Below, in pieces: positions 23,444 through 46,538 of a stretch of DNA of 64,000 nucleotides; the first letter of the stretch is position 1, and the number at the start of each line of letters is the position of its first letter. The translations under genes were made by a program, and so were the position numbers. The notes beneath the pieces were generated by a model. That model worked only from the letters and a program-made list of their open reading frames with translations. It did no database searches and was not told the DNA's origin. The DNA is taken from contig DATHQM010000054.1 in assembly GCA_035482695.1 (NCBI GenBank), positions 460-64,459 of the forward strand. The letters are read 5' to 3'. Source of the stretch: Steroidobacteraceae bacterium (GTDB taxonomy: Bacteria; Pseudomonadota; Gammaproteobacteria; Steroidobacterales; Steroidobacteraceae).

Positions 23444-24171
23444 ATCCGCTCAGCATAAGGACACGCGACGGTATCTGTCCGGCTTACGTCTATCCGCCGC
23501 CCGGCGGCGGACCCTGGCCGGCGGTGCTGGTGTTCATGGACGGGCTCGGCATCCGTCCCGCCGTGCTCGAGATCGGCGAGCGCCTTGCGCGGCATGGCTA
23601 TTACGCCGTGCTGCCCGATCTTTACTACCGCTCCGGCCCGTACGCGCCGATGGATCCGCGCGCGATATTCGCCGATGCGGACCTGCGTCGTGGGCTCGCG
23701 GAGAAGTTCATGGCGCTGGCCACCCCCGCCAATGTCATGTCCGACACACAGGTCTTCCTCGATTTCCTCGGCGCACAGCCCGAGGTGCGCAGCGGCGCCA
23801 TCGGCACGACCGGTTACTGCCTGGGCGGCCTCATGTCGCTCAGCGCCGCCGGCACCTATCCCGGGCGAATCGCCGCCGCCGCTTCGTATCACGGCGGGCG
23901 GCTGGCGACCGACGCGCCCGACAGTCCACACCGGCTGGCGCCGCAAATGAAGGCCCGCATCTACGTCGCCGGCGCCAGCGACGATCCCTCGTTCCCCGCG
24001 GACATGAAACAACGTCTCGAGGCGGCGCTCACCGAGGCCGGCGTCGACCACCGCATCGAGACGTACCCGGCAAAGCATGGCTGGGTGTTTCGCGACACGC
24101 CGGCCTATGACGCGGCGGCGTGCGAGCGGCACTGGCAAACGCTGCTGGCGCTGCTCGCGTCGCAGCTCTAG
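23440..24171 (+). CDS. dienelactone hydrolase family protein
   Basis: ATG 23440 overlaps the symporter stop (ATGA). Nucleophile motif GYCLGG, then AGASDDPSFP and KHGW, typical of DLH. Confidence 0.85.
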   Translation: MNPLSIRTRDGICPAYVYPPPGGGPWPAVLVFMDGLGIRPAVLEIGERLARHGYYAVLPDLYYRSGPYAPMDPRAIFADADLRRGLAEKFMALATPANVMSDTQVFLDFLGAQPEVRSGAIGTTGYCLGGLMSLSAAGTYPGRIAAAASYHGGRLATDAPDSPHRLAPQMKARIYVAGASDDPSFPADMKQRLEAALTEAGVDHRIETYPAKHGWVFRDTPAYDAAACERHWQTLLALLASQL

Positions 24172-25289
24172 GAAATCGAAACCCCGAGCAGCGAACCCAC
24201 TCCGTAGGTGAGGGCTGCGGCGGCACAGCCGGACAGCGCCTGCCGCAACGCCGAGAACCACGGCGTGCGTCCGTTGAAAAGCGAGGTCAGCAGCCCGATG
24301 CCTGCCAGCGCGAGGAAGCTGAGTGCAATGCTCAGGGCGATCGCCTGCACGCCGCGCGCCCACAGGAACGGAACCACCGGGAAGATCGCGCCCGCGCAGA
24401 ACAGTGCAAAGGAAGTGGCGGCGGCGCTGAAGGGATTGCCGCCGAGCTCGGCCGGATCGATCCCGAGCTCCTCGCGTACCAGCGTGTCGAGCGCCGCGTG
24501 CTTGTCCTTCATGAGCTCCGCGGCGACGCGCTGCGCGTCAGCCTTCGGCAGGCCCTTCGCCTGGTAGATCAGCGCCAGCTCGTGCTGCTCGGCTTGCGGG
24601 GTCTGCTCGATCTCCTCCGCCTCCCTGGCGATCTGGCTGCTCGCCAGCTCGCGCGCGTTGGTCACCGAGAGCCACTCGCCGAGCGCCATCGAGCAGGCGC
24701 CCGCGACCAGCCCGGCGAGACCGGTGAGCAGGATGATCCGCTCGCTGCCGCCGGCTCCGGCAACGCCCATGATCAGGCAGAAGTTGGATACCAGCCCATC
24801 GTTCGCCCCCAGCACCGCCGCGCGCAGGTTGTTCCCCGAGGCGCCGCGATGCCAGGGCTCGGCACGCGCAATGTCCGTCCCGCTCACGCCGCCGGGGGCT
24901 GCGCTGCGGGCGATCTCCTGCACCACGGCCGCATGACCGCGCTCCTCGGCGGAGATCGCCTGCGCGTCGCTCTGGGTCGCGTACTTGTTGCGATCGGAAA
25001 ATTCCGCCGCCGCGATGGTCGGCATCACGAAGTGCGGACCGAAGCGCTGCGCCAGTCTGCCGAGCAGCCGCGTGCGAAAGCCCGGCACGTAGGGCTCGAT
25101 GGCGACGCCGGCCTTCGCCAGCTTCTCGCGCCACAGCGCGGCGTGACGCGCCTCCGCCTGCGCCAGCTGCAGGAACAGGTCGCGCCTCACCGGATCGGTT
25201 TCGGCCGCGGCAATGCTGGTGTAGAGCCTGGCACCGTCCAGCTCGTCGCGCAGATTCGCCTGGAAGCGCTTGATGTCGTCGGCGGCCAT
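24168..25289 (-). CDS. ferritin-like domain fused to VIT1/CCC1 transporter (MbfA-like), paralog 2
   Basis: ELDGARLYTSIA...LAQAEARHAALWREKL...ISAEERGHAAVV (two erythrin-type helix pairs). VIT1 motifs LRAAVLGANDGLVSNFCLIMGVAG and LGEWLSVTNAREL. Only 8 nt downstream of the cyclodeaminase-family gene. Confidence 0.85.
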   Translation of the reverse strand: MAADDIKRFQANLRDELDGARLYTSIAAAETDPVRRDLFLQLAQAEARHAALWREKLAKAGVAIEPYVPGFRTRLLGRLAQRFGPHFVMPTIAAAEFSDRNKYATQSDAQAISAEERGHAAVVQEIARSAAPGGVSGTDIARAEPWHRGASGNNLRAAVLGANDGLVSNFCLIMGVAGAGGSERIILLTGLAGLVAGACSMALGEWLSVTNARELASSQIAREAEEIEQTPQAEQHELALIYQAKGLPKADAQRVAAELMKDKHAALDTLVREELGIDPAELGGNPFSAAATSFALFCAGAIFPVVPFLWARGVQAIALSIALSFLALAGIGLLTSLFNGRTPWFSALRQALSGCAAAALTYGVGSLLGVSIS

Positions 25290-25297
25290 GAGGAATT

Positions 25298-26244
25298 CTA
25301 CGCCCGCGCCGCGGCGGTCACGATCAGCTGCGCTGCGGCCAGATCCTCGATGGCACTGCCCACGGACTTGAAGAGCGTCAGCTCCTGCGGCGAGCCGCGT
25401 CCGCTTACCCGCCCGAGCACCAGGTCCTGCAGCTCGCCCTCGATGTGCTCGCGGCTGATGACGCCGCGAGCGAGCGGGTCGAGGAGGTCACCCGCCTCGG
25501 CGAGCGCACCGGCGAACGTATCGACGAAGATGCGACAGCGGCGCACCACCTCGTCGTCCGTTTCCCGCATGGTGGGCGTGAAGCTGCCCACCAGGTCGAC
25601 GAATACGCCGGACCTGAGCCAGCGCCCGCACAGCAACGCCGTGGCGCTGCTGGTGGCGCAGCAGATGATGTCCGCGGTCGCGGCCGAGCGCTCGAGGGAA
25701 TCGGCGCTGTCCACGCTGATATCGGCCGCCACGCGCGAGCGGATGGCCGCCACGGTCGCCGCGACGCGCTGCGCCCGGCGTCCCCAGACGCTGATGCGGC
25801 GAATGGGTCGCACCGTGCAGTGCGCCAGGGCCATGTAGGGAGCCAGTGCGCCGGTTCCGACGATGAGCAGCTGCGAGCTGTCACGACGCGACAGGTAATC
25901 CGAGGCGAGCGCCGATGCGGCCCCGGTCCGCAGCCGCGTCACCACCGTGCCGTCGAGTATCGCCACCGGCGTGCCCTCGTCCGAGAAGACCGCGATCATC
26001 CCCTGGATCGTCGGCAGGCCGCGCGCCGGATTCTCCGGAACGATGTCAGCAGCTTCACCGCCCCGCGGCCTTGCGCGTCGAACGCCGGCATGCTGACAAA
26101 CAGCCGCTCGCCGGCGCCTCCCGGGATGTGCGCCACCTGCCGCGCGGGGGCCACGCAGGCGCTGCGAAACGCGTGGCGCAGACACTCGATCAGCTCCGGC
26201 ATGCTGGCCAGGCGGTGTGTTTGCTCCGCGTCGAGCAGCAACAT
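25298..26244 (-). pseudogene. ornithine cyclodeaminase/mu-crystallin family gene interrupted by an apparent 1-nt deletion near 26043-26048
   Basis: N-terminal 67 codons from ATG 26244 (MLLLDAEQTHRLASMPELIECLRHAF...GRGAVKLLT) are in one frame. The rest (VPENPARGLPTIQGMIAVF...TRLRTGAASALAS...IVGTGALAP...) is in another frame, running to the stop at 25298. Total length is 947 nt, not a multiple of 3. Confidence 0.7.
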
Positions 26245-27620: not shown

Positions 27621-28511
27621 ATGGACGTGGGATTCATCGGGCTCGGCCGCATGGGCAGCGCCATCGCGGCCAACCTGCTGCGCGCCGGTCACACGCTGTG
27701 TATCTGGAATCGTTCGCCTGAAGCCGCACGCGAGCTGCAACGGCTGGGCGCGAAAGTCGCGGCGGCGCCCGCGGAGACCGCGCGCGCCCAGGTGTTGTTC
27801 ACCATGCTGGCGGACGACGCTGCCACGCGCGCGGTCGTCCTCGACGCCGGCGTGCTCGATGCCGCATCCCGTGGCCTGATTCACGCCAACCTCGCCACGG
27901 TCTCGGTGGGCTGTGCACGCGAGCTCGCGCAGCTGGAGAAGGCCCGCGGCATCGACTACGTCGCCGCCCCGGTGTTCGGCAGGCCGGAAGCGGCCCAGGC
28001 GGCGAAGCTCAATGTCGTTGTGGCCGGCGATCCGGCGGCCATCGGGCGCCTGCAGCCGCTGTTCGCCGCGATCGCCGAGCGGGTCTGGCCGATCAGCGGT
28101 GCCGCCGAGCGCGCCAATGTGGTGAAGCTCGCCGGGAACTTCATGATCGCGAGCGCGCTCGAGACGATGGGCGAAGCGGCCGCACTGGTGCAGGCTCACG
28201 GCATCGGCGCGGGCGAATTCCTCGAGGTGCTGACCAGCACGCTGTTCGCATCCCCGGTGTATCAGAACTACGGCAGGCTGATTGCGTCGGCTCGCTATGA
28301 GCCGGCCGGATTCAAACTCTCGCTCGGGTTGAAGGACGTGCGGCTGGTGCTGCAGGCGGGCGAGGACGTGCACGTGCCACTGCCCTTCGCGAGCGTGCTG
28401 CGTGACCATTTTCTCGAGGCGCTCGCCGCCGGCAGGGGCGACCAGGACTGGGCGGCTCTCGCCGCCGTCGCGGCTGCACACGGACCGCAGCAGCAGCCAC
28501 GAGAGCGCTGA
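27621..28511 (+). CDS. NAD(P)-dependent 3-hydroxyisobutyrate/6-phosphogluconate dehydrogenase-like oxidoreductase
   Basis: VGFIGLGRMGSAIAANL Rossmann motif, and later GAAERANVVKLAGN, typical of the HIBADH family. Confidence 0.85.
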   Translation: MDVGFIGLGRMGSAIAANLLRAGHTLCIWNRSPEAARELQRLGAKVAAAPAETARAQVLFTMLADDAATRAVVLDAGVLDAASRGLIHANLATVSVGCARELAQLEKARGIDYVAAPVFGRPEAAQAAKLNVVVAGDPAAIGRLQPLFAAIAERVWPISGAAERANVVKLAGNFMIASALETMGEAAALVQAHGIGAGEFLEVLTSTLFASPVYQNYGRLIASARYEPAGFKLSLGLKDVRLVLQAGEDVHVPLPFASVLRDHFLEALAAGRGDQDWAALAAVAAAHGPQQQPRER

Positions 28512-30092
28512 GTGCGGGCGGCGCGTCCGGCTGCCTGCCTGCGCCGCGCGGGGCTCGGCGCGCTCGCCGCAACATCCTGCGCATTCGTCGCACCCCCGCC
28601 CTCGCTCGCCGCGCCCCGGCCCGCAGATTCCTCGCTGATCGGCCAGGTCGACGCCTATCGCCGCGCGCATGAGGAGGCGATCGTCGCGCAGCTCGACGCC
28701 CTGACGCGGCTGCGCAGTATCGCCGCAGATCCGACCGGACTCGACGCCGCCGCCGACCGATTGCAAGCCCTGCTGGCGGCGCGCGGCTTCGCGGTACGGC
28801 AGCTGCGCGCGGAAATCGGCACGCCGGCGCTCGTGTTCGGCTCGCTCAAGAGCCCGCGCGCCACGCACACCGTGGTGTTTTACGCGCATTATGACGGCCA
28901 GCCGGTGACGCCCTCGCGGTGGCACTCGGACCCCTTCATCCCGGTGATGCGCAGCGGGCCGCTGAGCGCCGCGGCGTCCGAGGTCAACTGGCGCGACCTG
29001 CGCGCGCCGCTCGACCCCGAGTGGCGTCTGTTCGGCCGCGCCGTCGCCGACGACAAGGCCTCCATCGTGGCGTTCCTCGCGGCCTTTGATGCGCTGGCCG
29101 CGGCCGGCCGCAAACCCACCGTCAACATAAAGGTCGTGTGGGAAGGCGAGGAGGAAGCAGGCTCGCCGCATCTCGAAGCGATCCTGCGAGCCAACCGCGA
29201 GCCGCTGGCGAGCGATCTGTGGCTGATCGGCGATGCACCGGTGCATCAGTCGCGCACGCCGACGCTCTACTTCGGCGCGCGCGGCAGCGTGGACCTGGAG
29301 GCGACGGTGTACGGGCCGCTGCACGCGCTGCACGACGGGCACTACGGCAACTGGGTGCCGAATCCCGCGGTCATGGCGGCGGAGCTGGTGAGCGAGATGC
29401 GCGACAGCGAGGGCCGGATCCTCATTCCCGGATTTGACGACGAGGTGCAGCCGGTTCCGCCCGCCGCGCGCGCGGCGCTGGCGCAGCTGCCGCCGGTGGA
29501 GGAGTCGCTCAAGCGCGAGTTCGGCATCGGCCGCAGCGAGGGTAATGAAGGACTGACCGCCAGCACGCTGCGACCCGCGCTCAACGTGCGCGGCCTCCGT
29601 TCCGGCCAGGTGGGCGCGGACGCCGTCAATGCCATCCCCGCGGATGCGGTCATTTCCATCGATTTTCGCCTGGTGCCCGACCAGCGACCGGCCACGGTGC
29701 GTGCGCGCGTCGAAGCTTTCCTCGCCGCCCGGGGGTGGACGGTGGTCAGTGCACCTCCGGACTTCGACACGCGCCTCGCCCATCCGCGCATCATCAGCCT
29801 GCGCTGGGATGCGGGATACCCGGCGCTGCGCACCGACATGTCATCGCCGCTCGCGCGTGCGGTGATTGCGGCCGCCGACCGCGCCGCGGGCGGCCGTGTG
29901 GCGCTGTTACCGATGATGGGCGGCAGCGTGCCGATCTACATGATCGCCGCGGTCTGCGCGGTGCCGGTGATCGGCCTGCCGATCGTCAACCACGACGACA
30001 GCCAGCACGCGCCCGATGAGAACCTGCGGCTGAAGAATCTGTGGGACGGAATCGATACCTACGCCGCAATGCTCGGCACGCTCAGCTGGTAA
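28512..30092 (+). CDS. exported M20 family metallopeptidase
   Basis: N-terminal signal-like segment. Metal-ligand motifs FYAHYDGQPV, GRAVADDKAS and WEGEEEAGSP. GTG start abuts the previous stop. Confidence 0.85.
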   Translation: MRAARPAACLRRAGLGALAATSCAFVAPPPSLAAPRPADSSLIGQVDAYRRAHEEAIVAQLDALTRLRSIAADPTGLDAAADRLQALLAARGFAVRQLRAEIGTPALVFGSLKSPRATHTVVFYAHYDGQPVTPSRWHSDPFIPVMRSGPLSAAASEVNWRDLRAPLDPEWRLFGRAVADDKASIVAFLAAFDALAAAGRKPTVNIKVVWEGEEEAGSPHLEAILRANREPLASDLWLIGDAPVHQSRTPTLYFGARGSVDLEATVYGPLHALHDGHYGNWVPNPAVMAAELVSEMRDSEGRILIPGFDDEVQPVPPAARAALAQLPPVEESLKREFGIGRSEGNEGLTASTLRPALNVRGLRSGQVGADAVNAIPADAVISIDFRLVPDQRPATVRARVEAFLAARGWTVVSAPPDFDTRLAHPRIISLRWDAGYPALRTDMSSPLARAVIAAADRAAGGRVALLPMMGGSVPIYMIAAVCAVPVIGLPIVNHDDSQHAPDENLRLKNLWDGIDTYAAMLGTLSW

Positions 30093-30203
30093 ACCGCTGC
30101 GCAGTTGTCCGCAGCACGCCCGCCCGCAAGCCGGGGTAGCTTGCTTAACACGCAGGGCGGCAGTTATGTTGTGCATCCGGCCAGCCTTCGGAAGGAGAAG
30201 CGC

Positions 30204-30524
30204 GTGAAACAGGTCATCGACAAGTCCCGCCGCCGCCTGCTCAGGAACATCGCCCTGGGTGTGGTACTGATCCCGATCGCCCGCGCGCCTGTGGAGATCG
30301 CCGGCGCTGCCGACGGCCCGCTCGTCACTGCCGACGATCCCACCGCCAAGGCACTGAAATACACCGCCGACGCCAGCACGTCGCCGGACGCCAAGGGCAA
30401 CAAGTGCTCGAACTGCCGCTTCTACCAGGGTGCCGCCGACAGCGCGCAGGGAGGCTGCCTGATATTCCCGGGCAAGTCGGTCAAGGCTGCGGGGTGGTGT
30501 AGTTCCTGGACCGCGAAAACCTAG
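30204..30524 (+). CDS. high-potential iron-sulfur protein (HiPIP)
   Basis: GAAGGAG RBS then GTG 30204. Tat motif SRRRLL. Four-Cys HiPIP pattern CSNCRFY...GGCLIFPGKSVKAAGWCSSW. Confidence 0.9.
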   Translation: MKQVIDKSRRRLLRNIALGVVLIPIARAPVEIAGAADGPLVTADDPTAKALKYTADASTSPDAKGNKCSNCRFYQGAADSAQGGCLIFPGKSVKAAGWCSSWTAKT

Positions 30525-30713
30525 GCACGCCGGCCCGCGGTGCCGCGTCGGCCGCCGTACTCATGCCGGCGGCTGTACTGCCACCATCCGCGGGCCGCTG
30601 CGCCCGGCCAGCACGCGACACACGAACCCGGCCGGCTTGACGACCAACAGGCCGCAGGCCAGGCGGTCCATGATGATCGCCGCGACCGCCTGCTAAATGC
30701 ACCGTTTCGCGCG

Positions 30714-30727
30714 TGCAACGTGTTGCA
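30714..30727. promoter_or_regulatory. 14-bp palindrome TGCAACGTGTTGCA, candidate operator
   Basis: Perfect inverted repeat TGCAAC-GT-GTTGCA, about 115 nt upstream of the kinase ATG (30841), in an otherwise non-coding 316-bp spacer. Confidence 0.3.
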
Positions 30728-30816
30728 AATGCCGATTTCCTCACGTAATCGCGGCCACTCCCCCGCCATTGCGGAACATACGTACGGACGTCCGACCCCG
30801 GGCAGTACATCCTGAT

Positions 30817-30836
30817 GCCTCATAGTATGATGAGGC
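30817..30836 (+). promoter_or_regulatory. stem-loop whose 3' arm contains the Shine-Dalgarno of the kinase gene
   Basis: GCCTCAT-AGTATG-ATGAGGC (7-bp stem). GAGG at 30832-30835 is the only SD-like element before ATG 30841. Confidence 0.35.
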
Positions 30837-30840
30837 GAAA

Positions 30841-31605
30841 ATGAAGGCTGATTCGCACCCTGAGGGGCAGCTGGGAGTGCCGGCTGCAGTGCTGCACGGC
30901 CGGCTTCTGCACGTCTCGCGCATGGCGACCATCGGTGAGATGGCCGCCGGAGTCGCGCATGAGCTGAATCAACCGCTGACGGCGATCGCCAACTACGCCC
31001 AGGCCTGCCGCCGGCTGCTCGCGCGGCCCGATGCCGACCCGACGGAGCTGCAGCAGGCGCTGGCGGAGATCACCACGCAGGCGGCCCGCGCTGCCGAGAT
31101 CATCCGCCGCCTGCGCGACCTTGCCCGCAGCCAGCAGAGCGAGCGGGCGACGACCGATATCAATGCCCTGGTGCAGGAGATGATCGAACTGGTCGAGAGC
31201 GATGCGCGCCTGCACGGCGTGCACGTCTCGCTCGAGCTCACCGACGAGCTGCCCGGGGTGCTGGTCGACGCCGGTCAGATCCAGCACGTCATTCTCAGCT
31301 TCGTACGCAACAGCCTCGAAGCGCTGGCATCGCAACCCGGCGGCGGGCATTTGTCGATCCGCACCTCGCGGCCCTCCACCGCCGAGGTGGAGGTGGCCGT
31401 CATCGATAACGGCCCGGGTCTTGCCGCGGAAGCGATGGCACGCCTCTTCGACCCCTTCTTCTCCACCAAGGCGAGGGGTACGGGGATGGGCCTGGCGATC
31501 AGCCACACGATCGCACGCACCCACGGCGGTTCGGTAGGCTATCGGCCCAATCAGCCGTCGGGGGCATGCTTTTACATTCTCCTGCCGGCGCCGCCCGCCA
31601 CGTGA
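30841..31605 (+). CDS. sensor-less cytoplasmic histidine kinase (FixL-type transmitter only)
   Basis: H-box IGEMAAGVAHELNQPLTAIANYA begins about 30 aa from the N-terminus. HATPase motifs DNGPGL and GTGMGLAIS. Clear paralog of 11608..12447. Confidence 0.88.
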   Translation: MKADSHPEGQLGVPAAVLHGRLLHVSRMATIGEMAAGVAHELNQPLTAIANYAQACRRLLARPDADPTELQQALAEITTQAARAAEIIRRLRDLARSQQSERATTDINALVQEMIELVESDARLHGVHVSLELTDELPGVLVDAGQIQHVILSFVRNSLEALASQPGGGHLSIRTSRPSTAEVEVAVIDNGPGLAAEAMARLFDPFFSTKARGTGMGLAISHTIARTHGGSVGYRPNQPSGACFYILLPAPPAT

Positions 31606-31606
31606 T

Positions 31607-32233
31607 ATGCAGGACCCGGCGACAACCATCTACGTAGTCGACGACGATGAGGGGGTGCGCAACTCCGTACGCTTCCTGCTCAAGTCCGTCGGACTGACCG
31701 CACGCACCTTTGCCTCCGCGCGCGAGTTCCTCGACGGCTACCAGCCCAGGCAGCCCGGTTGCGTGGTGCTCGACGTGCGCATGCCCGGAATGAGCGGGCT
31801 GGAATTGCAGGAGCAGCTCAACCTGCGCGGCGCGGTGATTCCTGTGATCTTCATCACCGGGCACGGCGATATCCCCATGGCGGTGGACGCCATGCAACAT
31901 GGTGCGTTCGATTTTCTGCAGAAGCCGTTCCGCGACCAGGACCTGATCGACCGCATCCAGCGGGCACTCGATCGCGATGCCAAAAATCGCGCCGCGCTCG
32001 CGCAGCACGACCGAATCCGCGGGCGCTTCGAATCCCTCACGCCACGCGAGCGCGAGGTGCTGACGCTGATGACGCGTGGAAAACCCAACAAGGTGATGGC
32101 CGCGGAGCTCGGCGTCAGTCAGCGCACCGTCGAGATACACCGTGCCCGCGTGATGGAGAAAACCGGCGCCGCGTCACTCGCCCAGCTGGTGCGGATGGTG
32201 CTCGATCTCGAGTCGCAGGACACCGTGCCCTAA
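31607..32233 (+). CDS. FixJ/LuxR family response regulator
   Basis: Receiver (IYVVDDDEGVR...VVLDVRMPGMSG...FLQKP) plus LuxR HTH (LTPREREVLTLMTRGKPNKVMAAELGVSQRTVEIHR). Starts 1 nt after the kinase stop. Confidence 0.92.
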   Translation: MQDPATTIYVVDDDEGVRNSVRFLLKSVGLTARTFASAREFLDGYQPRQPGCVVLDVRMPGMSGLELQEQLNLRGAVIPVIFITGHGDIPMAVDAMQHGAFDFLQKPFRDQDLIDRIQRALDRDAKNRAALAQHDRIRGRFESLTPREREVLTLMTRGKPNKVMAAELGVSQRTVEIHRARVMEKTGAASLAQLVRMVLDLESQDTVP

Positions 32234-32244
32234 AGCGCGTTGCT

Positions 32245-32263
32245 GCGGCGGACACGCCGCCGC
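32245..32263 (+). terminator. GC-rich hairpin after the response regulator gene
   Basis: GCGGCGG-ACACG-CCGCCGC followed by TT, located 12 nt after the stop at 32233. No long U tract. Confidence 0.35.
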
Positions 32264-32318
32264 TTCGCTGCGGCATCTGCGTATTTCCCCGGCAGCGTCA
32301 TTGCCATAATCATGTGGC

Positions 32319-32834
32319 ATGAACACCAGATCTGACGCGGATATATGCGCCAACGTCGAGGCGGAACTGCACTGCTGCCCGGACGTGGACGAGACCGACA
32401 TCGCGGTCAAGGTACGCAACGGTACCGTCACGCTGAGCGGCTTCGTGCGCAGTCTCTTCGACAAGTACGGCGCGGAGGACGCGATCAGGCGCGTTCGCGG
32501 GGTCGGCGCGGTGGCCAACGAGCTGGTCGTGCAGACACCCGACGGCCGCGACAGCATCTGCGATCCGCAGATCGCGGGCGCCGCAGTTACAGCGATCCAG
32601 CGGCAGCTGCCACTGTGCTGTGAACAGATACGCCTGCTCGTTCACCAGGGCTGCGTCACTCTTGAAGGCAAAGTCGAGTGGCTGCACCAGCGTGAGGAAG
32701 CCGAGGCAGTCGTGCTGCGACTGCCGGGTGTTCGCGGCGTGATCAACGCCATTGCGCTCGCACCGTGCGTGGCATCGGGATGCAACGAGCTGTCGATCCG
32801 CTCCGCGGGTGTTGCCGCCGGGAACGACACCTAG
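32319..32834 (+). CDS. BON domain protein (two BON repeats, OsmY-like)
   Basis: Two repeats of the pattern I.V.V.NG.VTL.G.V....(..)A......V.GV..V.N.L (VKVRNGTVTLSGFV...VRGVGAVANELVV and LVHQGCVTLEGKV...LPGVRGVINAIAL). Confidence 0.85.
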   Translation: MNTRSDADICANVEAELHCCPDVDETDIAVKVRNGTVTLSGFVRSLFDKYGAEDAIRRVRGVGAVANELVVQTPDGRDSICDPQIAGAAVTAIQRQLPLCCEQIRLLVHQGCVTLEGKVEWLHQREEAEAVVLRLPGVRGVINAIALAPCVASGCNELSIRSAGVAAGNDT

Positions 32835-33002
32835 GCCAGGCGAGCCGCGGGCATCCCACACCCGCACGCTGCGATGCAAGCGCTGTTCGATGCGGCGCTG
32901 CGGCGGCGGCGCGAACGGTGCGTGCGCAAGCGCACATACCCGAAAGGATGCTAAGCTGCCGCGCCGTCAGCAGCGCTCGGGTAGCCTTTGAGGGAGCGAA
33001 AA

Positions 33003-34439
33003 ATGGCAGATAGCGCCAACACCCAGGCCTCGCGTCACTTAACTATCGCGGCGATCCTGGCGTCGGGGCTGCTCGCGGCGCCAGCGGCGCTGGCGGTACC
33101 GAGCTTTGCACGGCAGACGGGCATGGCCTGCGAGGCCTGCCACACGGTCTTTCCCGAGCTCACGCACTTCGGCCGCGTCTTCAAGGCTAACGGCTATACG
33201 CTCACGAACCTCAAGCAGGTGCGCGACGTCAGCGCCACCAAACAGCAGCTGCTCGAGCTGTCGCAGATGCCGCCGCTGTCCATCATGGCGCAGATCTCCT
33301 ACACGGAGCTGAAGACCCCCGTCCCCAACCTTGCAGGTGCTGGCGCTCCCGGAGTCGCGCAAAACGGCACTGCCGGCTTTCCGCAGCAGTTCAGCCTGTT
33401 CTACGCGGGCAAGATTGCACCGAACTTCGGCGCGATGTTCCAGCTCACTTACGATAACGCCGGCGGCACGATCGGCATCGACAACAGCGATCTGCGCTTC
33501 GCCGATATGGCACTGCTGCCCGACAACGGCACCCTGACCTACGGCCTGTCGCTCAACAACAACCCGACGGTGCAGGATCTGTGGAACTCGACGCCGGCAT
33601 GGGGCCTTCCCTACGAAGCGAGTAACGCGGCGGTGTCGCCACTCGCCGGCACTGCGATCAACGGCGCGTTCGCGCAGAACGTCGCCGGTCTCACCGGTTA
33701 TCTGTACTGGAACGAATCACTGTACGCCGAGGTCGGCGGTTACCGCTCGGCGCAGCAGGGAGTGACCAACCAGCTGACCGGCGGCGCCGGGCCGCTCGAC
33801 GGCACCGCCTCGAACGTCATCCAGGGGCTCTCGCCTTACTGGCGCCTCGCCTACGAGTACAACTGGGACCGCAATTCCATCGAGGTCGGCGGCTACGGAA
33901 TGGACTTCAAGGTGCTGCCGGGGGCGGCATCCGGCGCGCCCACGAATCTGCATGGTCCTTACAACCAGTTCAATGACGTCGCCGAGGATCTGCAGTATCA
34001 GTTCATAGGCGAGCAGAATCTGTTCAGCGTGATGGCAACCCACATCCACGAGTCGATGACGCTCAATGCGGCTTTTGCCAGCGGGGCGTCGGCGAATCCC
34101 TCCAATACACTCACCACCACCGAGGTAGCGGCCACCTACTACTATCGCCGCCGCATCGGTGGTTCGCTGCAGTACTTCTCGACCACCGGCAGCACCGACA
34201 CCGGCCTGTATCCGGGCACGGCACCAGGCCAGCCGGGCGTGGTCACCAGCGCCAACGGCTCGCCCGACACGCGCGGCTACATCGCGGAGCTCAACTACCT
34301 GCCGTGGCTCAACGTCAAGGTATCGATGCAGTACATCTGGTACAACAAATTCAACGGCGGCAGCAGTAACTACGACGGCGTGGGACGCAACGCTTCCGAC
34401 AACGATACGTTGTATCTGCTCCTCTGGTTCGCGTACTGA
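33003..34439 (+). CDS. fused monohaem cytochrome c / outer-membrane beta-barrel protein (Cyc2-like)
   Basis: GAGGGAG RBS then ATG 33003. Signal peptide ends ALA-VP, followed immediately by SFARQTGMACEACHTVFPELTHFGRVFKANGY (single CxxCH). After that come about 430 aa of alternating-pattern, Gly/Tyr/Asn-rich sequence ending in an aromatic terminus (LLWFAY), typical of OM barrels. Confidence 0.75.
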   Translation: MADSANTQASRHLTIAAILASGLLAAPAALAVPSFARQTGMACEACHTVFPELTHFGRVFKANGYTLTNLKQVRDVSATKQQLLELSQMPPLSIMAQISYTELKTPVPNLAGAGAPGVAQNGTAGFPQQFSLFYAGKIAPNFGAMFQLTYDNAGGTIGIDNSDLRFADMALLPDNGTLTYGLSLNNNPTVQDLWNSTPAWGLPYEASNAAVSPLAGTAINGAFAQNVAGLTGYLYWNESLYAEVGGYRSAQQGVTNQLTGGAGPLDGTASNVIQGLSPYWRLAYEYNWDRNSIEVGGYGMDFKVLPGAASGAPTNLHGPYNQFNDVAEDLQYQFIGEQNLFSVMATHIHESMTLNAAFASGASANPSNTLTTTEVAATYYYRRRIGGSLQYFSTTGSTDTGLYPGTAPGQPGVVTSANGSPDTRGYIAELNYLPWLNVKVSMQYIWYNKFNGGSSNYDGVGRNASDNDTLYLLLWFAY

Positions 34440-34448
34440 GGTTGCGTC

Positions 34449-35126
34449 ATGAGCCATATCAACATGAATCGTGATGCCCGCTGGCAACCCGGCAGCGCCT
34501 GGCCGCGCCTGTGGCTGTCGCTTGCCGGCACCGCCCTGCTCGCGACCGCGGTGTGCGTGGTGCGCGCCGATGAGCCCGATCCTGCCGCAAAGGCGTACGT
34601 CGCAAAAATTGCCATCGGCACCTGCGGCACCTGCCACGGGCGGGACGGCAACAGCACGCAGCCGAAGTTTCCGCGCCTCGCCGGCCAGCGACCCACCTAC
34701 CTCGTTACGCAGCTCAAGGGATTTCGCGCCCAGACCCGCGGTGATCCGGATGCGATCAGCTACATGTGGGGCATGGCGAGCCAGCTGGACGATACGACCA
34801 TGGAGACGCTCGCCGCCTATTACGCCACGCAGACAGCGCAGGTCAGCCCGGGCGGCGACGCGGCGCTCGTCGCGCGCGGACGCGAGATCTACGAGCATGG
34901 CGTGGCGGCACAGGGCGTGCCGGCCTGCAGCACCTGTCATGGAGCGGATGCCCATGGGCAGCAGGATTTCCCGCGCCTCGCCGGCCAGCACGCGCAGTAC
35001 GCGCTGAAGCAGCTCGCCTCCTTCCAGAGCAGCATGCGCAACGTCGCGGTCATGCACGGCGTGGCGCAGAATCTGCATCTGGACGACATGCAGGCGGTGG
35101 CGGCGTACCTGGAGGCGCAGCCCTAG
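34449..35126 (+). CDS. dihaem cytochrome c4 family protein
   Basis: Two CxxCH sites (CGTCHGRDG, CSTCHGADA), each followed by FPRLAGQ and a Met-containing distal segment. Signal peptide present. Starts 9 nt after the Cyc2-like gene. Confidence 0.9.
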   Translation: MSHINMNRDARWQPGSAWPRLWLSLAGTALLATAVCVVRADEPDPAAKAYVAKIAIGTCGTCHGRDGNSTQPKFPRLAGQRPTYLVTQLKGFRAQTRGDPDAISYMWGMASQLDDTTMETLAAYYATQTAQVSPGGDAALVARGREIYEHGVAAQGVPACSTCHGADAHGQQDFPRLAGQHAQYALKQLASFQSSMRNVAVMHGVAQNLHLDDMQAVAAYLEAQP

Positions 35127-35179
35127 GAGGCGTGCGCCGTGTGGGCGGGGTCGCGGGTCAGCCTGCGCGGAACTCGCGC

Positions 35180-35914
35180 TCACGCCGCGCCGGGCCGCGA
35201 GCTGCCGGCGACAAGTGCCGGCAGCGCGGCGATGCTGTCCACGAAGGCGTCGCAGGCGAGCGTGCGCGGATCGGCGCCCTCGTTGTAGCCGTACGGGACG
35301 CACACCACCGCGATCCCTGCGGCGCGCGCCGCCAGCACGTCGACCTGCGAGTCTCCGACCATCAACGTCTGCGCCGGCAGCACCTGCAGGCGCTCGCACG
35401 CCAGCCACAGCGGCTGCGGGTGCGGCTTACGCTCGCGGCCGTCCTGCGCGCCGACGACCAGCTGAATCCACCGGGTGAGCTCGAGCCTCGCGAGCAGCTC
35501 GACCGCCAGCTGCTGCGTCTTGTTGGTTACCACCCCGAGGCGCAGGCCGAGCGCGCACAGGCCTGACAGGCCCTGCACCACGCCGGGAAAGGGTCGTGCC
35601 GCGAAGGCGTTGTCTTCGTGCAGCCGCTCGTAGTGTGCGTCGTAGCGCTGCTGCAGCCGGGCACGGTCGGCGCGCGCGCCGGCGGCGCCGCAGCGCGCCA
35701 GGGCGCGCTCGATCAGGGTGGGCACGCCGCGCCCGATCAGCCCGCGCACCTCGGCCGGGGCGAGCGGGCCCAGCCGCTGCTCGGCGAGCGCCGCGTTCAG
35801 CGCGGCGGCGATGTCGGCGGCGGTATCGAGCAGCGTGCCGTCCAGGTCGAACAGCACCGCGCGCACCGCGGGCGCGCCCGCCCGCCGCGCCGGCGCCGTG
35901 GGGCCGGCATTCAC
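35180..35914 (-). CDS. gph: phosphoglycolate phosphatase (HAD superfamily)
   Basis: HAD motifs VLFDLDGTLLDT, GVVTNK, KPHPQPL and MVGDSQVDVLAARAAG. Confidence 0.85.
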   Translation of the reverse strand: MNAGPTAPARRAGAPAVRAVLFDLDGTLLDTAADIAAALNAALAEQRLGPLAPAEVRGLIGRGVPTLIERALARCGAAGARADRARLQQRYDAHYERLHEDNAFAARPFPGVVQGLSGLCALGLRLGVVTNKTQQLAVELLARLELTRWIQLVVGAQDGRERKPHPQPLWLACERLQVLPAQTLMVGDSQVDVLAARAAGIAVVCVPYGYNEGADPRTLACDAFVDSIAALPALVAGSSRPGAA

Positions 35915-37149: not shown

Positions 37150-37198
37150 GGCCGGCGGCAGGCGCGCGCCGGCGCGACACTGCGCTGAGCCGCGGCCG

Positions 37199-38308
37199 CT
37201 AGCCCGCCGGCACGGCGCGCACGACGCCCCAGGGACTGCCGCCGACCTTCACCCGGGCTTTCACCTCCCCGGTCTTGAGATCGATGATCGACACATCGCC
37301 CGAGGGCCCGTTGGCCGTGTAGGCCGTCTCGCCGTCGGAGCTCAGCGCCACGCCCCAGGGACGCACGCCGACATTGTCGATGGTGCGGACGATCCGGCCG
37401 GATTGCGTGTCGACCTCGAGGAGCTTGCCGAACCTGCCGGTCGTGACATAGAGGTGCCGGCCGCCGTCCGGCGAATCGAGGCCCATGGGGCGCACGACTT
37501 TCGGGTCCCCGAGATCGATGGTCTTCACGACCTTATAGTCGTCGCTGCTGAACTCCGTCAGCGCCGCGCCGAACTCATCGCTCACGTAGCCGCGATGCGT
37601 GTCGCGGGACAGGTAGATCGCGCGCGGGCGCTTCCCGGTAGGGATCTGCGCCAGCACCTTCATGGCGCCGGCCTCGACCACGTAAACCGCGTTGGAGGTC
37701 TCGCAGGCGACGTACACGATGCGGTCGTCCGCACTAATGGCAACGCCCTCCGGCTCGGTACCGACCGGCACAGTGACGCGCAGGCTCCCCTTGGCAAGGT
37801 CGATGGCCGAGAGCTGCCCGCTGTCCTCGTTGGAGACATACAGCACCTTGCCGTCGTGCGACAGCGCGAAGGTCTCCGGGTCGATGCCGCTCGGGTAGGT
37901 GCCGATGAGTCGCTGCGCGGCGAGGTCGATCACCCCGATGCCGTCGTAACGGTGATCGGGCGGCGGGAGCTTCGACTCGTCGACCCCCGGTCCCGCCGCC
38001 GGCGAGCCGGTCAGCGCCACATACAGCCGCTTGCGATCCGGGGAGATGACGATGCCGCGCGGCCGCTTGCCGACCGCGATGCGCGCCACCACCGCCGCCT
38101 GCTGCGGATCGACGATCACGACGTTGCCGCCGGTCTCGTCCGAGACGTACAGCCGCTCGCCGCCGCCCGCCGCGACGGCCGCGCTGAGCGGTGCGAGCAG
38201 CAGCAGCGCCAGCACCGCGGCCGCGGCACCGGAACGCCGGCGCGATGCGTGAGTCTTCAGTAGCGCACCATCAGTACAGCACCACGCTTCGGATCGAGGT
38301 GCCGGCAT
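37199..38308 (-). CDS. YVTN-repeat beta-propeller protein (PQQ-dehydrogenase-associated type)
   Basis: Repeated ..LYV(S/A)...G.V.VID.... units ([99 protein letters not shown]). Overlaps the flhA 3' end by 38 nt if ATG 38308 is used. Confidence 0.8.
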
Positions 38309-39380
38309 GCATCAGGTCGAACGCGTCGTTGATCTTATCCAGCGGCATGGTGTGCGTGATCAGCGGATCGATCGCGATCTTCTTGTCCATGTACCAGTCG
38401 ACGATCTTCGGTACGTCGGTGCGGCCACGCGCGCCGCCGAAAGCGGTGCCCTTCCATACCCTGCCCGTCACCAGCTGGAACGGCCGGGTCTTGATTTCCT
38501 GGCCCGCGCCGGCCACGCCGATGATCACCGATACGCCCCAGCCGCGATGGCAGCACTCGAGTGCCTGGCGCATGAGGTTGACGTTGCCCACACATTCGAA
38601 GCTGTAGTCGGCGCCGCCGTCGGTGACGGCGACGAGGTGCGCCACCAGGTCGCCCTCAACCTCCTTGGGGTTGACGAAGTGCGTCATGCCGAATTTCTCG
38701 GCGAGCGCCTTGCGATTCGGATTGAGATCGACGCCGACGATCTTGTAGGCGCCGGCCATGCGGGCGCCCTGGATCACGTTCAGCCCGATGCCGCCGAGAC
38801 CAAACACCACCACGTTGGCGCCCGGCTCGACCTTCGCGGTGTTGATCACCGCGCCGATCCCGGTGGTCACGCCGCAGCCGATGTAGCAGACCTTGTCGAA
38901 CGGCGCGTCCTCGCGGATCTTCGCCACCGCGATCTCCGGCAGCACCGTGAAGTTGGAGAAGGTCGAACAACCCATGTAGTGGTAGATCTTGTCCTTGCCG
39001 ATCGAGAAGCGGCTGGTGCCATCGGGCATCACGCCTTTGCCCTGGGTGGCGCGGATCGCGGTGCACAGGTTGGTCTTGCGCGACAGGCAGCTCTTGCACT
39101 GCCGGCACTCCGGCGTGTAGAGCGGGATCACGTGGTCGCCCTTCTTCACGGAAGTGACGCCAGGTCCTACGTCGACGACGATGCCCGCCCCCTCGTGTCC
39201 GAGAATCGACGGGAACAGGCCTTCCGGGTCACCGCCCGAACGGGTGAACTCGTCCGTGTGGCAGACGCCGGTGGCCTTGAGCTCCACCAGCACCTCGCCG
39301 GCCTTGGGGCCTTCCAGATCGACCGTCGCGATCTCGAGGGGCTTGCCGGCGGCATAGGCAATCGCAGCGCGTGTTTTCAT
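38271..39380 (-). CDS. flhA: S-(hydroxymethyl)glutathione dehydrogenase / class III alcohol dehydrogenase
   Basis: [49 protein letters not shown]...[10 protein letters not shown] and the rest are near-canonical class III ADH sequence. AGGAAC RBS. Confidence 0.93.
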
Positions 39381-39427
39381 GGCTGACAGGTTCCTGATTC
39401 GGAAGCGGTTACGAGTCCGAAGCTGAG

Positions 39428-39455
39428 GGCCCCGCGCGAGCGGGCGCGCGGGGCC
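39428..39455 (-). other. strong intercistronic stem-loop between gfa and flhA
   Basis: GGCCCCGCGCG-(6 nt)-CGCGCGGGGCC, a perfect 11-bp GC stem in the 92-nt gfa-flhA spacer. No U tract follows. Confidence 0.5.
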
Positions 39456-39472
39456 TTCAATGCACGCTGAAC

Positions 39473-40045
39473 TTACGCGGCCAGCACGCCCTTGGCTTTC
39501 GCCGTGTGCGTGGCGATCAGATCCATCAGCGCCGGCGACAGGCAGTCATAGGGCTCGAGGCCGAGCTCTTTCAACCTGGCGCGCACCGCGCCCATCTGGT
39601 CGGGCTTGGTGCCCGACTCGATGATCGAGGATACGAACGCCGCGAAGCGCGGCTCCTCCCAACCCTGCTCCTTCGACAGCTCGGTATGGAAGAAGTCGAA
39701 GCCGTAGAACGGGTGCTGCTTGTTCTCGATGCGCCCGTACATGTGCACGCCGCAGCCGGTGCAGGCATGGCGCTGGATCGCCGCCTTCTCATCGACGATC
39801 TTCAGCTTGTTGCCGTTCGCGGTCACGGACAGCTTGTCGCGCCCGCCCACGCCGACGATGGAGAACACCGCTCCCTCCGGCTTCCAGCACTTGGTGCAGC
39901 CGCAGGCGTGATTGAAGGCGACGTTCGTGCCGATGCGCACGGTCACCGGGTTGCTGGTGCACTTGCAGGTGAGCGTGCCGCCGGCGAACCCCGGCGTGCC
40001 CTTCTTGACTCCGTTGTCGACCATCGGGTGAATCTTGATTGCCAT
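39473..40045 (-). CDS. gfa: S-(hydroxymethyl)glutathione synthase (glutathione-dependent formaldehyde-activating enzyme)
   Basis: [26 protein letters not shown]...[15 protein letters not shown]...[17 protein letters not shown]...FVSSIIESG matches Paracoccus Gfa, as I recall it, almost residue for residue. Confidence 0.93.
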
Positions 40046-40082
40046 CTTAGTCCTGCCTCGCCTCTGGGGTGGATCGATTGAC

Positions 40083-42071
40083 TCATTCGGGCGACTGCGG
40101 ACTCACCCCGAGGTGCTGGGTGTGTCGCAGAAGTCCGTGTCGGTGAATCTTGCGGTAAATGGTGCGGCGGCTGATGTGCAGCCGCGCGGCGGCAGCGCTG
40201 ACGTTCCACTGACAGGTCTCGAGCGTGCGCCTGAGCGCATCGCGCTCGGCGCCGCTGAGCGCGCTCTCGCCGTCGGCGGCCGCGTCCACCGCCGCGCCGT
40301 CGCCGTGCGCTGCGTCCTCGACGCCGCCCGCCAGCCACTGCTCCCTGAAGTCCGCGAGCGTCAGCCGCTCGCCGCTGCGCAGCGCCAGCATGGTGCGCAG
40401 CACGTTGCGCAGCTGGCGCACGTTGCCCGGCCAGGAGTGGCGCACCAGCCGCTCGAGCAGCTGGGGCTCGATCTCGATCGTGGCAACGCACTCGCTCGCG
40501 AGCAGCTTGCGGATCAGGCCGGCCTTGTCGGTGCGCTGGCGCAGCGGCGGCAGCCGCACGGTGATGCCGTTCAGCCGGTAATACAGGTCTTCGCGGAACT
40601 GCCCCTTGGCGATCATGTCGAGCGGATCGTGTTGCGTGGCGCTGACGATGCGCACGTCGACGTTGACCACCTTGTTGCCGCCCAGCGGCGTCACTTCGCG
40701 GTCCTCGATCACGTTCAGCAACCGCGCCTGCAGGGCCACCGGCATGTCGCCGATCTCGTCGAGAAACAGCGTGCCGCCGTTGGCCTGCAGGATGCGGCCC
40801 ATACCGCCTTCGCGCGCCGCGCCGGTGAAGGCGCCCGGCTTGTGGCCGAACAGCTCGCTCTCGATGAGCGTTTCGGGGATCGCCGCGCAGTTGACCGTGA
40901 CGAAGGGCTTGTCGGCGCGGTTGCTCGCGTAATGGATGGCGCGCGCGCAGTAACCCTTGCCGGTGCCGGTCTCCCCGAGCAGCAGCACCGAGATATCCCG
41001 ATCGATCACGCGCCGCAGCGTCTCGACGTTCTGCGTCATGACTGGATCGGCCGAGTGCAGGCAGTCGAGCGACCCGCGCGCGCCCGCCGCGTTGGCCATG
41101 CGCACCTCGGCGTCGACCGCCACCTGGGTGCGTGGCGGGGCTTCCAGCGGCGCCTGCACGGTCGCGAACCAGCGCCGTGCCGCGGGCCGGGAGTTGAGCG
41201 GCTCGGCGCGGAAGCCGCGCTGCGCGGCGAGCTGCATGAGCGTGGCGAGGCTGGTATCGAGGATACGGTCGGCGCGCTGGCCGCACACCGCATCATGGTC
41301 GCGCTGCCCGAGGAGCTTGAGCGCCGCACGGTTGACGCCGCGCACCACGCCCTCGTCGTCGAACGCCAGCAGGCCTTCGCCGGGCGTGCTGACGAACTCC
41401 GCGCAGCGGTGAAAGCGCGCCAGGTGCAGGTCCTTGCAGCCACTGAGCAGCGTGCGGTTCTCGACGTTCTGCGCCGCCATGTCGACCAGCGCCAGCGTGT
41501 GACTCTGCGGATTCGAGGAGGCCCCGGAGATATCGAGCGCCGCGAGCAGCTCGCCGCGCATGTCGAAGATGGGCGCTGCCGAACAGGTGAGCGCGGTGTT
41601 CTGCGCCAGGAAGTGGTCGGTACGGTGGATCACCACCGGGCGGCGCGCCGTGAGGCAGGTGCCCATGCCATTGGTGCCCATCTCGCGCTCGCTCCACATC
41701 ACCCCTTCGCGAAAGCCGCAGCGCCTGGCGGTGGCGGAGAAGCCGGTGTCGCCGAGATAGCTGAGGATGACCCCGTCGCGGTCGGTCAGCATGATGCTGT
41801 ATTCGGAGTGCTTGATGAGCTTGCCGAGCTGCTCCATCTCGATGCGCGCGACGGCCAGCAGCACCCGCAGCCGTTCGCGCCGCTCCTGCAGGTCCGCGCG
41901 CTCGACGCTGTTCGGACGGCGCGTCTCCTGCGGATCGAGCGCAAAGTTGTTGAGGCAGCGGCTCCAGGATGTACGGACGACCTCGGGGATGGGCTGCTCG
42001 GCACCGTGTCGGCGTACCAGACTGCCGATGAGGTCCTGGTGAGTATGAGCAGCGGGTCGCGCACGCATCAT
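40083..42071 (-). CDS. sigma54-dependent transcriptional activator (AcoR-like: N-terminal GAF-type sensor, AAA+ domain, Fis-type HTH)
   Basis: Walker A GETGTGKG, the sigma54-contact motif GAFTGA ([10 protein letters not shown]), ESELFGH, and C-terminal [21 protein letters not shown] 42071 has a GGAGGGGGAG RBS. Confidence 0.9.
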
Positions 42072-42107
42072 AAATAGCTCCCCCTCCACACCCGTCAGGC
42101 GGACGGA

Positions 42108-42656: not shown

Positions 42657-42696
42657 TTGCGCGCCTTTCGTTGCCTCGAGGAACGGGACTGGCGTT

Positions 42697-44316: not shown

Positions 44317-44458
44317 TTTCTGCCTGCAGCTCCTCGCTCCATGCGGTGCCTTAGCTCCTTGCGGTGCTCTTCCCCTGAAGAAGAGGACGCGCCCGGCACG
44401 GTGCCGGGCGCGTCCAGCTGGCGACTATCTCACCAGGTCCTTGCTGAGGAGCATCCTC

Positions 44459-46327: not shown

Positions 46328-46538
46328 ACGCAGTTCTCCTAGACTCGAGTTATATCGTTCGGTATGTCCAGCATTGCCGGCGAGCGCCAGTTCGCAGCTG
46401 CGCGTTGGTCGGCCGCAACCTTCGTCCTCCCCACAGACCCCGTCTTCCCCTTTGAAGTTAATAATTTAGGCGCAATATCCTAGTCCCATTCCCCCGGTCA
46501 TGCAGCCGGACGGTGCAGGCGCCGAGTCCGCCACAAAC

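Follow-up and report, generated by a model that had tools for sequence, protein, structure and literature searches.

A 64,000-nt stretch of the genome of a Steroidobacteraceae bacterium (contig DATHQM010000054.1 of assembly GCA_035482695.1), hereafter called the window, carries at 30204–35126 a run of six genes, which a preliminary description made from the sequence alone had proposed to be an outer-membrane electron-transfer module built around a Cyc2-like gene (cyc2) and a cytochrome c4 gene. By checking open reading frames (ORFs) and domains, we confirmed the positions, the + strand orientation and the domain contents that had been described for all six genes. The central finding is that the 478-aa product of 33003–34439 is a genuine Cyc2-family cytochrome-porin, which agrees with every published sequence and fold criterion tested. 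The genes of the locus, together with a palindrome that precedes cyc2, are as follows.

30204–30524, + strand: HiPIP (PF01355, 74.2 bits against a cut-off of 22, E 1e-20)
30841–31605, + strand: soluble, sensor-less histidine kinase (HK) with FixL-like DHp and catalytic domains (HisKA and HATPase_c only)
31607–32233, + strand: FixJ-like response regulator (RR) with REC and LuxR/GerE helix-turn-helix domains (NF006900 FixJ, 243.1 bits)
32319–32834, + strand: two-BON-domain protein (PF04972 twice) with no evident signal peptide
32922–32935, no strand: GTGC-N6-GCAC palindrome GTGCGCAAGCGCAC, a possible operator and a lead only, about 80 nt 5′ of cyc2
33003–34439, + strand: cyc2, encoding a Cyc2-family fused monohaem cytochrome c and outer-membrane porin of 478 aa (motif, homology and AlphaFold2 fold)
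34449–35126, + strand: dihaem cytochrome c4, a Cyc1-type periplasmic carrier (two CXXCH motifs; matches to solved c4 structures)

The criteria applied to the 478-aa protein were those of Keffer et al., 2021 (PMC8406198). According to these, a Cyc2 has a signal peptide and a single CXXCH. An AXPXFAR[Q/K][T/Y] motif, said to be found in Cyc2 alone, immediately precedes the CXXCH, and a PXL motif follows 4 residues after it; the protein is at least 365 aa long, has a 16-strand OprO/OprP-like porin body and matches a reference Cyc2 with a BLASTP E value of ≤1e-5. At the N-terminus of the 478-aa protein, a signal peptide was recognized by inspection, MADSANTQASRHLTIAAILASGLLAAPAALA followed by VPSF, which ends at the junction ALA/VP and the hydrophobic core of which forms a helix at residues 7–24 in the AlphaFold2 (AF2) model; the A-x-A/VP cleavage junction is kept in most of 24 loci. 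Right behind the signal peptide lies the single CXXCH of the protein (CEACH, residues 43–47), embedded in the motif string AVPSFARQT-GMA-CEACH-TVF-PEL, in which AVPSFARQT is an exact match to the Cyc2 consensus and PEL, following CEACH-TVF, represents the PXL, while the length of 478 aa exceeds the 365 aa required.

Conservation of these features was evaluated in 120 close homologs, 126 full-length distant representatives and a 58-sequence alignment. The full motif is retained in 117 of the 120 close homologs, and exactly one CXXCH was found in all 120 of them as well as in 125 of the 126 distant representatives, so that the haem motif proved to be conserved in orthologs, a point that the preliminary description had named for checking. 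The pattern A[VIL]PSFARQTG..C..CH...P.L or a near variant of it occurs in nearly all family members examined, and Q38, C43, C46, H47, P51 and L53 are invariant in the alignment.

Homology searches pointed to the same family. By HMMER, the protein matched the representative P0269 over its full length (E 1e-60, 36% identity), and the cluster of P0269 (≥90% identity) includes proteins of Acidithiobacillus ferrivorans and Acidithiobacillus sp. The gene of one cluster member, P0290, heads a gene order of 495 aa, dihaem cytochrome, 183 aa, COX2 and COX1, which equals the published rus operon order of cyc2-cyc1-cup-coxB-coxA; P0290 was therefore taken as the Cyc2 heading an Acidithiobacillus rus operon. 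A BLASTP comparison with the rus-operon Cyc2 (Acidithiobacillus sp. GCA_028065835.1) gave 35% identity across residues 10–478 of the window protein (E 2e-72).

The AF2 model, which was built from the 58-sequence alignment (pLDDT 88.1, pTM 0.85), consists of a porin barrel and a small helical N-terminal segment, and the beta-barrel that had also been named for checking was thereby found. The model contains about 16–18 strand elements, a range that reflects 18 DSSP elements of which some are possibly split. Foldseek matched the model to outer-membrane porins only, most of them with 16 strands (Omp-Pst2, OmpF, BpsOmp38 and OprP, with OprP 2o4v at 1.4e-7), and no solved Cyc2 structure was among the matches listed. 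A PDB sequence search gave noise only (E ≥0.2), and no Pfam or NCBIfam model matched the protein, because such models are lacking and not because the protein lacks a family. Altogether, the motif, the homology to the rus-operon Cyc2 and the barrel fold bear out the Cyc2-like identity that had been proposed for 33003–34439.

The c4 gene starts 9 nt past the cyc2 stop and encodes two class-I cytochrome c domains with the haem motifs CGTCH and CSTCH. Across residues 52–222, its product is matched equally well by c4 of P. stutzeri (1ETP, 3e-34) and c-552 of A. ferrooxidans (1H1O, 1.1e-33), and it shares 40% identity with Cyc1 of the Acidithiobacillus rus operon (BLASTP, E 1e-41), which substantiates its earlier designation as the Cyc1 counterpart. 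The solved entry 8snh contains a c4 chain plus a cbb3 oxidase subunit, a pairing that fits c4 working with a cbb3 oxidase. For comparison, 82 related loci were fetched, 80 of which could be assessed for the gene immediately 3′ of cyc2. A c4 gene lies directly 3′ of cyc2 in 57 of these 80 loci and another dihaem cytochrome gene in 2 more, which indicates an arrangement beyond chance and provides, for cyc2 and c4, the synteny in relatives that was to be checked. The loci without an adjacent c4 carry distant copies (41–45% identity) and are mostly metagenome-assembled genomes (MAGs) labelled Bacteroidota, Acidobacteriota, Binatia and Chlorobiota.

The HiPIP of the window carries a Tat-type SRRRLL export motif and four cluster-binding Cys in the pattern C-x2-C ... 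C ... C, and its GTG start is preceded by AAGGAG. Solved HiPIPs match it at up to 9e-14, the best PDB matches being generic HiPIP entries. Using ≥35% identity and a distance within 5 kb of cyc2 as the linkage criteria, HiPIP genes were found in 9 related loci, in varying positions and orientations. On a plasmid of Caballeronia sp. SBC1, a HiPIP, cyc2 and c-type cytochrome gene follow each other in that order with insertion sequence (IS) elements on both sides, and their products are 35% (5e-19), 44% and 53% identical to those of the window, respectively. The proposed association of HiPIP with the cyc2-c4 pair is thus confirmed as that of a recurrent neighbour, and comparison of the 57/80 c4 adjacency with the 9 HiPIP loci indicates that cyc2-c4 is the conserved core and HiPIP a recurrent third part. 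Family membership, fold and gene linkage are established here.

A different picture was obtained for the three genes between HiPIP and cyc2. The kinase is 254 aa long and aligns only to FixL model positions 249–483, which leaves no room for a sensor domain; with HisKA and HATPase_c only, it does not have the haem-binding PAS sensor that is a criterion of FixL. The regulator gene starts 1 nt past the kinase stop, and its product falls just short of the FixJ model cut-off of 255 bits, so 'FixJ-like' is a fair label and 'FixJ' is not. In the related locus L001, the Cyc2 of which is 77% identical, the gene order is ccoI-ccoS-DsbD_2-HK-RR-PAS hybrid kinase-BON-HSP20-HemN-GNAT-cyc2-c4-Usp-Usp, and the orthologs of the kinase (245 aa, with the same two domains only), the regulator and the BON protein share 74%, 86% and 62% identity with those of the window. 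The segment of HSP20, HemN, GNAT, cyc2, c4 and Usp is common to L005, L008 and L010, BON orthologs of 56–62% identity sit inside the low-oxygen clusters of L001 and L010, and ccoI and DsbD_2 lie directly 5′ of cyc2 in L018, L028 and L047. Among the related loci, HemN was found in 10, Usp in 11, and regulator orthologs (≥50% identity, within 10 kb of cyc2) in 10.

Judged by its content, this gene set of the relatives is a low-oxygen response cluster around cbb3 oxidase maturation genes, and in the window lineage it seems to be present in condensed form. The claim that the six genes form one module with its own dedicated two-component system was not supported, as the orthologs of the kinase, the regulator and the BON protein sit in the ccoI/ccoS-PAS kinase-HSP20-hemN-Usp cluster of the relatives; the kinase/FixJ-like pair is, as far as its domains and neighbours indicate, not a dedicated iron sensor. 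The BON gene likewise drops out of the module, being absent from the closest relative, L003 (89–95% nucleotide identity), which has the order HiPIP-HK-RR-cyc2-c4. In the nucleotide comparison of the two (window 22001–42919 versus L003 2999–21419), the window segment 32233–32977 containing BON has no counterpart in L003. Insertion of BON into the module was considered and rejected; since its orthologs sit in the low-oxygen cluster of the relatives, loss in L003 is likelier than insertion in the window, and the BON protein is apparently an accessory stress or low-oxygen gene product that is dispensable. The same comparison showed five single-gene presence/absence differences in about 20 kb, namely an MbfA-like VIT1 gene (23444–25304), an M20 peptidase gene (28495–30117), BON (32233–32977) and a beta-propeller gene (37176–38270) in the window only, and an 824-aa ORF behind c4 in L003 only.

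A convergent HAD hydrolase gene lies directly 3′ of c4 and closes the unit, and no credible small ORF was found in the 316-nt gap between the HiPIP and kinase genes. Scanning of 29900–35400 yielded no Rfam match and no sigma-70 promoter, and the terminator-like matches in this interval all fall inside genes. The GTGC-N6-GCAC palindrome upstream of cyc2 has a counterpart at a comparable position in L003 and another, lying farther from cyc2 at about −135, in L006; across the window the pattern is not enriched (4 observed versus 4.15 expected), and neither HiPIP nor the kinase gene has it upstream. At a similar place upstream of cyc2, a TA(C/G)GTAC-type box was observed in six more distant relatives (L001, L005–L008 and L010), and neither the palindrome nor this box reached significance in crude tests. 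Regulation of cyc2 by the FixJ-like protein appears plausible from the gene arrangement.

Exhaustive HMMER searching (E ≤0.001) placed the protein in a family of 3,472 clusters at 50% identity. Grouped at 90% identity, the homologs form over 7,000 clusters, and the family is present in at least 586 GTDB species genomes. The family ranges across Steroidobacteraceae-like Gammaproteobacteria, Burkholderiales, Alphaproteobacteria, Acidobacteriota, Bacteroidota, Chlorobiota and Binatia, and the closest homologs of the window protein (80–93% identity) come from soil MAGs labelled Steroidobacteraceae or uncultured Gammaproteobacteria, the probable lineage of the host. The family is without a Pfam or NCBIfam model, and its members are named 'cytochrome C' or 'hypothetical protein' in the source records. 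Plasmid-borne copies were found in Caballeronia, Ralstonia, Ideonella, Methylocystis and Acidiphilium, as a pair of cyc2 and a c-type cytochrome gene in Ideonella and others and as cyc2 itself in Ralstonia. The P. phytofirmans plasmid copy adjoins Usp and hemerythrin genes, and the Methylocystis plasmid copy adjoins genes for a Crp/Fnr regulator and a radical SAM enzyme.

Further observations concern the plasmid copies and their annotation. On the conjugative plasmid pACRY03 of Acidiphilium cryptum JF-5 (L086), the Cyc2 homolog adjoins genes for an SCP2 protein and two U32 peptidases, which we take to resemble ubiT/U/V, the genes for ubiquinone synthesis independent of O2. The plasmid record CP084173.1, which is assigned to A. 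ferrooxidans, has a score and identity to the query that equal those of the Acidiphilium copy. On pSBC1_3 of Caballeronia sp. SBC1 (L084, 8851–10257), the RefSeq coding sequence (CDS) of the Cyc2 homolog begins at VSFPEL, past the haem motif, while the in-frame upstream sequence encodes an intact signal peptide and LPAFARQTGLACVACH; the P. phytofirmans Cyc2 CDS (361 aa) looks similarly truncated. Start-site miscalls of the Caballeronia type strip the one feature by which the family is identified.

The combination of a Cyc2 family member, c4, HiPIP and a low-oxygen-type regulator pair suggests that the host probably takes electrons from dissolved Fe(II). We consider it reasonably likely that 33003–35126 encodes a two-gene Cyc2/Cyc1-type conduit which, together with HiPIP, would carry electrons of Fe(II) inward in a low-O2 context; in this proposal, the substrate, the direction, the oxidase and the regulation are what we infer. 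Cyc2 would sit in the outer membrane as a porin barrel with an N-terminal peptide carrying one c-type haem, and dissolved Fe(II) would be oxidised at this haem, in or at the barrel. The electron would then pass to the c4, which is presumably translationally coupled to Cyc2 through the 9-nt gap, and/or to the HiPIP, which as a protein with a Tat-type signal may act as the second high-potential periplasmic carrier and which travels with cyc2-c4 in several lineages, and it would end at a high-affinity terminal oxidase encoded outside the window, probably of the cbb3 type. For a heterotroph, the gain could be additional electrons for respiration, or a way of detoxifying Fe(II), in places with little O2 and lasting Fe(II). 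The kinase, the FixJ-like regulator and BON would be the remnant of a general low-oxygen cluster, and they probably put the conduit under low-O2 control. Both c4 and HiPIP are high-potential carriers, typically at +50 to +450 mV. The Cyc2 of Mariprofundus ferrooxydans PV-1, which oxidises Fe(II), has a measured potential of +208 mV (PMC8406198), and this value together with the high potentials of c4 and HiPIP makes inward flow thermodynamically sensible. A published pathway model leads from Cyc2 through Cyc1 to a cbb3 oxidase (PMC7029218), and the Cyc2 homologs that have been examined biochemically, one from each cluster, all oxidise Fe(II) (PMC8406198).

Several points weigh against the proposal of an inward Fe(II) conduit under low-oxygen control. 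Keffer et al. call the function of Cyc2 homologs distant from the characterised ones uncertain and in need of verification (PMC8406198). In the window itself, hemN, Usp and cco genes do not adjoin the cluster, and no terminal oxidase, rusticyanin or RuBisCO was found in the ORFs annotated by Pfam. Across the 24 loci used for comparison of the upstream regions, no FNR/FixK box (TTGAT-N4-ATCAA, ≤2 mismatches) was found within 260 nt 5′ of cyc2, the matches elsewhere in the window being away from relevant promoters, and no shared upstream 8-mer rose above shuffled controls; gene neighbourhood is therefore the one thing that points to low-O2 control.

Other explanations would keep the locus and change its function. 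The same conduit might serve a partner other than Fe(II), such as Mn(II), Cu(I), reduced humic quinones or other soluble reductants, or might export electrons to extracellular acceptors when O2 runs out. The low-oxygen gene context would also suit an alternative electron outlet, the at least 586 species in many phyla that carry the family are for the most part not known iron oxidisers, additional Cyc2 functions are allowed by Keffer et al. (PMC8406198), and Cyc2 genes have been discussed for the Mn-oxidising 'Ca. Manganitrophaceae' (PMC9040806). Nevertheless, every Cyc2 tested biochemically (one per cluster) oxidises Fe(II), and a narrow porin with only one haem fits a donor that is small and dissolved. 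High-potential c4 and HiPIP suit downhill inward flow to an oxidase and not export, and we regard a different partner or an outward flow as unlikely. Even less can be said for the view that the barrel is mainly a porin or uptake channel, in which the haem would be structural, sensing or protective (peroxidase-like) and c4 merely a neighbouring respiratory cytochrome. The fold does match general diffusion porins, but the haem motif is conserved, with one CXXCH in 125/126 distant full-length proteins and C43, C46, H47, P51 and L53 invariant in 58 sequences, the 9-nt coupling and the 57/80 conservation of c4 point to electron transfer between Cyc2 and c4, and the homology to the characterised oxidase family is full-length, all of which makes a mere channel very improbable.

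Whether all six genes form one dedicated module, with the kinase/FixJ pair as an iron- or redox-specific regulator that evolved for the conduit, has to be judged from the relatives. In L003, with its order of HiPIP-HK-RR-cyc2-c4, the regulator gene ends about 150 nt 5′ of cyc2, 10 loci have a regulator ortholog no more than 10 kb from cyc2, and GTGC-N6-GCAC is found upstream of cyc2 in the three closest genomes, all as a dedicated module would have it. In L001 and L008, however, the orthologous pair (74% and 85–86% identity) is 5–7 kb off, beside ccoI/ccoS and followed by the PAS hybrid kinase, BON, HSP20 and hemN, which is the layout of a general low-O2 regulon, and most cyc2-c4 loci have no such pair nearby. 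Given in addition that the kinase has no sensor domain, that BON is dispensable (missing in L003) and that the palindrome is neither enriched nor present upstream of HiPIP and the kinase gene, a dedicated module seems quite unlikely. A broader reading, which we put forward as a tentative and rather doubtful one, extends the Fe(II) conduit to a mobile accessory module: Cyc2-c4-HiPIP would be carried by Steroidobacteraceae-like soil heterotrophs and other lineages, in part on IS-flanked plasmid segments, would be switched on by FixJ-family regulators under low oxygen, and would give organotrophs electrons for respiration from dissolved Fe(II) or other soluble reductants at oxic-anoxic interfaces. 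If this were true, facultative iron oxidation in soil would be far commoner than the known iron oxidisers suggest, and the first regulator of a neutrophilic cyc2 would have been identified, in genetically tractable organisms.

Beyond the locus, the window reads as that of a heterotroph, to judge from its genes for a PQQ alcohol dehydrogenase, glutathione-dependent formaldehyde detoxification, copper resistance and iron handling. The impression of a methylotroph or heterotroph in the preliminary description arose from an alcohol/formaldehyde oxidation cluster at 37199–48067 and 53692–54594, which contains genes for a PQQ-associated beta-propeller (TIGR03866), an adhC-like zinc alcohol dehydrogenase, GFA, a GAF-domain sigma-54 activator, a monohaem cytochrome c, an ankyrin-repeat protein, a PQQ dehydrogenase, a 469-aa porin-like protein with no Pfam match and, further on, an fghA-like esterase. 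Iron-handling genes at 1531–2124, 10334–11278, 24168–25289 and 54893–57385 encode a ferritin-like protein, two proteins of the VIT1 family that are putative Fe(II) exporters, and a TonB-dependent receptor; one of the two VIT1-family proteins has a ferritin-like N-terminal domain and is MbfA-like, and a VIT1 gene also lies 2 kb from cyc2 in the related locus L027. A copper-resistance pair of CopB and a multicopper oxidase (CopA-type) is located at 17122–19652, and a 631-aa protein with caspase (Peptidase_C14) and FGE-sulfatase-like domains at 2543–4438.

For neutrophilic iron oxidation, Cyc2 serves as the principal marker gene, and its function outside the classic iron oxidisers as well as its regulation are stated to be open questions of the field (PMC8406198, PMC7029218). 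The locus offers three things for use: a very large family without a Pfam or NCBIfam model, one large clade in which cyc2-c4 sits in low-oxygen clusters beside a FixJ-like regulator, and a HiPIP-cyc2-c4 trio in cultured bacteria such as Caballeronia, where a deletion test, hard in iron oxidisers, may be feasible. In the literature searched, nothing relevant was found on a genetic test of cyc2 in heterotrophs or on low-oxygen regulation of cyc2 in Burkholderia.

The preliminary description had further taken the combination to be undescribed, which is overstated. Cyc2 homologs in organisms not known as iron oxidisers have been published (PMC8406198, PMC7029218), and surplus Burkholderia, Ralstonia and Xanthomonas sequences were dropped from the Cyc2 tree of Keffer 2021 (PMC8406198). 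Stand-alone cyc2 and cyc1 genes are known in Acidithiobacillus (PMC10654088), AfCyc2 has been linked to homologs in Rhodanobacteraceae, Burkholderiales and Acidiphilium (Zhou 2023), and a Cyc2-like cytochrome was reported for the acid mine drainage genome MAG 28, a member of the Steroidobacteraceae (PMC8357290). A HiPIP next to a Cyc1-like cytochrome has been noted in Ferrovum, with its role left unclear there. No description of a recurrent HiPIP-cyc2-c4 linkage, or of cyc2-c4 lying within a FixJ-type low-oxygen cluster, was found in the available parts of the literature searched.

Among the known systems, the rus operon of Acidithiobacillus, with its Cyc2 in Cluster 2 (McAllister 2020, Keffer 2021), has the same two proteins, Cyc2 and Cyc1, in the same order. 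Its Cyc2 reads ALPSFARQT-GWS-CAACH-TSY-PQL where that of the window reads AVPSFARQT-GMA-CEACH-TVF-PEL, with identical spacing. A rus-type operon was nevertheless rejected for the locus, as no cup, cox or rusticyanin genes follow cyc2-c4. Searching by tblastn with cup, COX2 and COX1 of Acidithiobacillus as queries, which covered the 82 related loci, gave no match, and Pfam annotation, covering the ORFs scanned in the window, found no oxidase or cupredoxin. In place of the rus genes, the window has HiPIP and the FixJ-like pair as neighbours, and whereas Acidithiobacillus is an acidophilic autotroph, the host belongs by its nearest relatives to a neutral-soil heterotroph lineage. The Cyc2 of M. 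ferrooxydans PV-1 (Cluster 1) has the same architecture, the defining motif and a proposed periplasmic dihaem carrier. As in the neutrophilic pathway from Cyc2 through Cyc1 to cbb3, the setting appears microaerobic, since the relatives have cyc2-c4 beside ccoI/ccoS and hemN, but unlike PV-1 the window gives no sign of obligate lithoautotrophy.

Less close are the PioABC and MtoAB systems, which likewise provide an outer-membrane electron route from Fe(II), and in which PioC is a HiPIP acting as a periplasmic carrier. In PioAB and MtoAB, a porin of about 26 strands encloses a decahaem cytochrome that is a protein of its own, whereas the protein of the window has one haem fused to a porin of about 16–18 strands. 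For the regulator orthologs, the gene company is similar to that in FixLJ-type regulons (fixNOQP/fixGHIS, hemN) and in hypoxia islands rich in Usp, HSP20 and BON; in contrast to FixLJ, the kinase has no haem-PAS sensor, the regulator scores under the FixJ cut-off, and cyc2 has no FixK/FNR boxes 5′ of it. The locus adds one more example to a Cyc2 system that is already known and very widespread, and does not represent a new kind of system.

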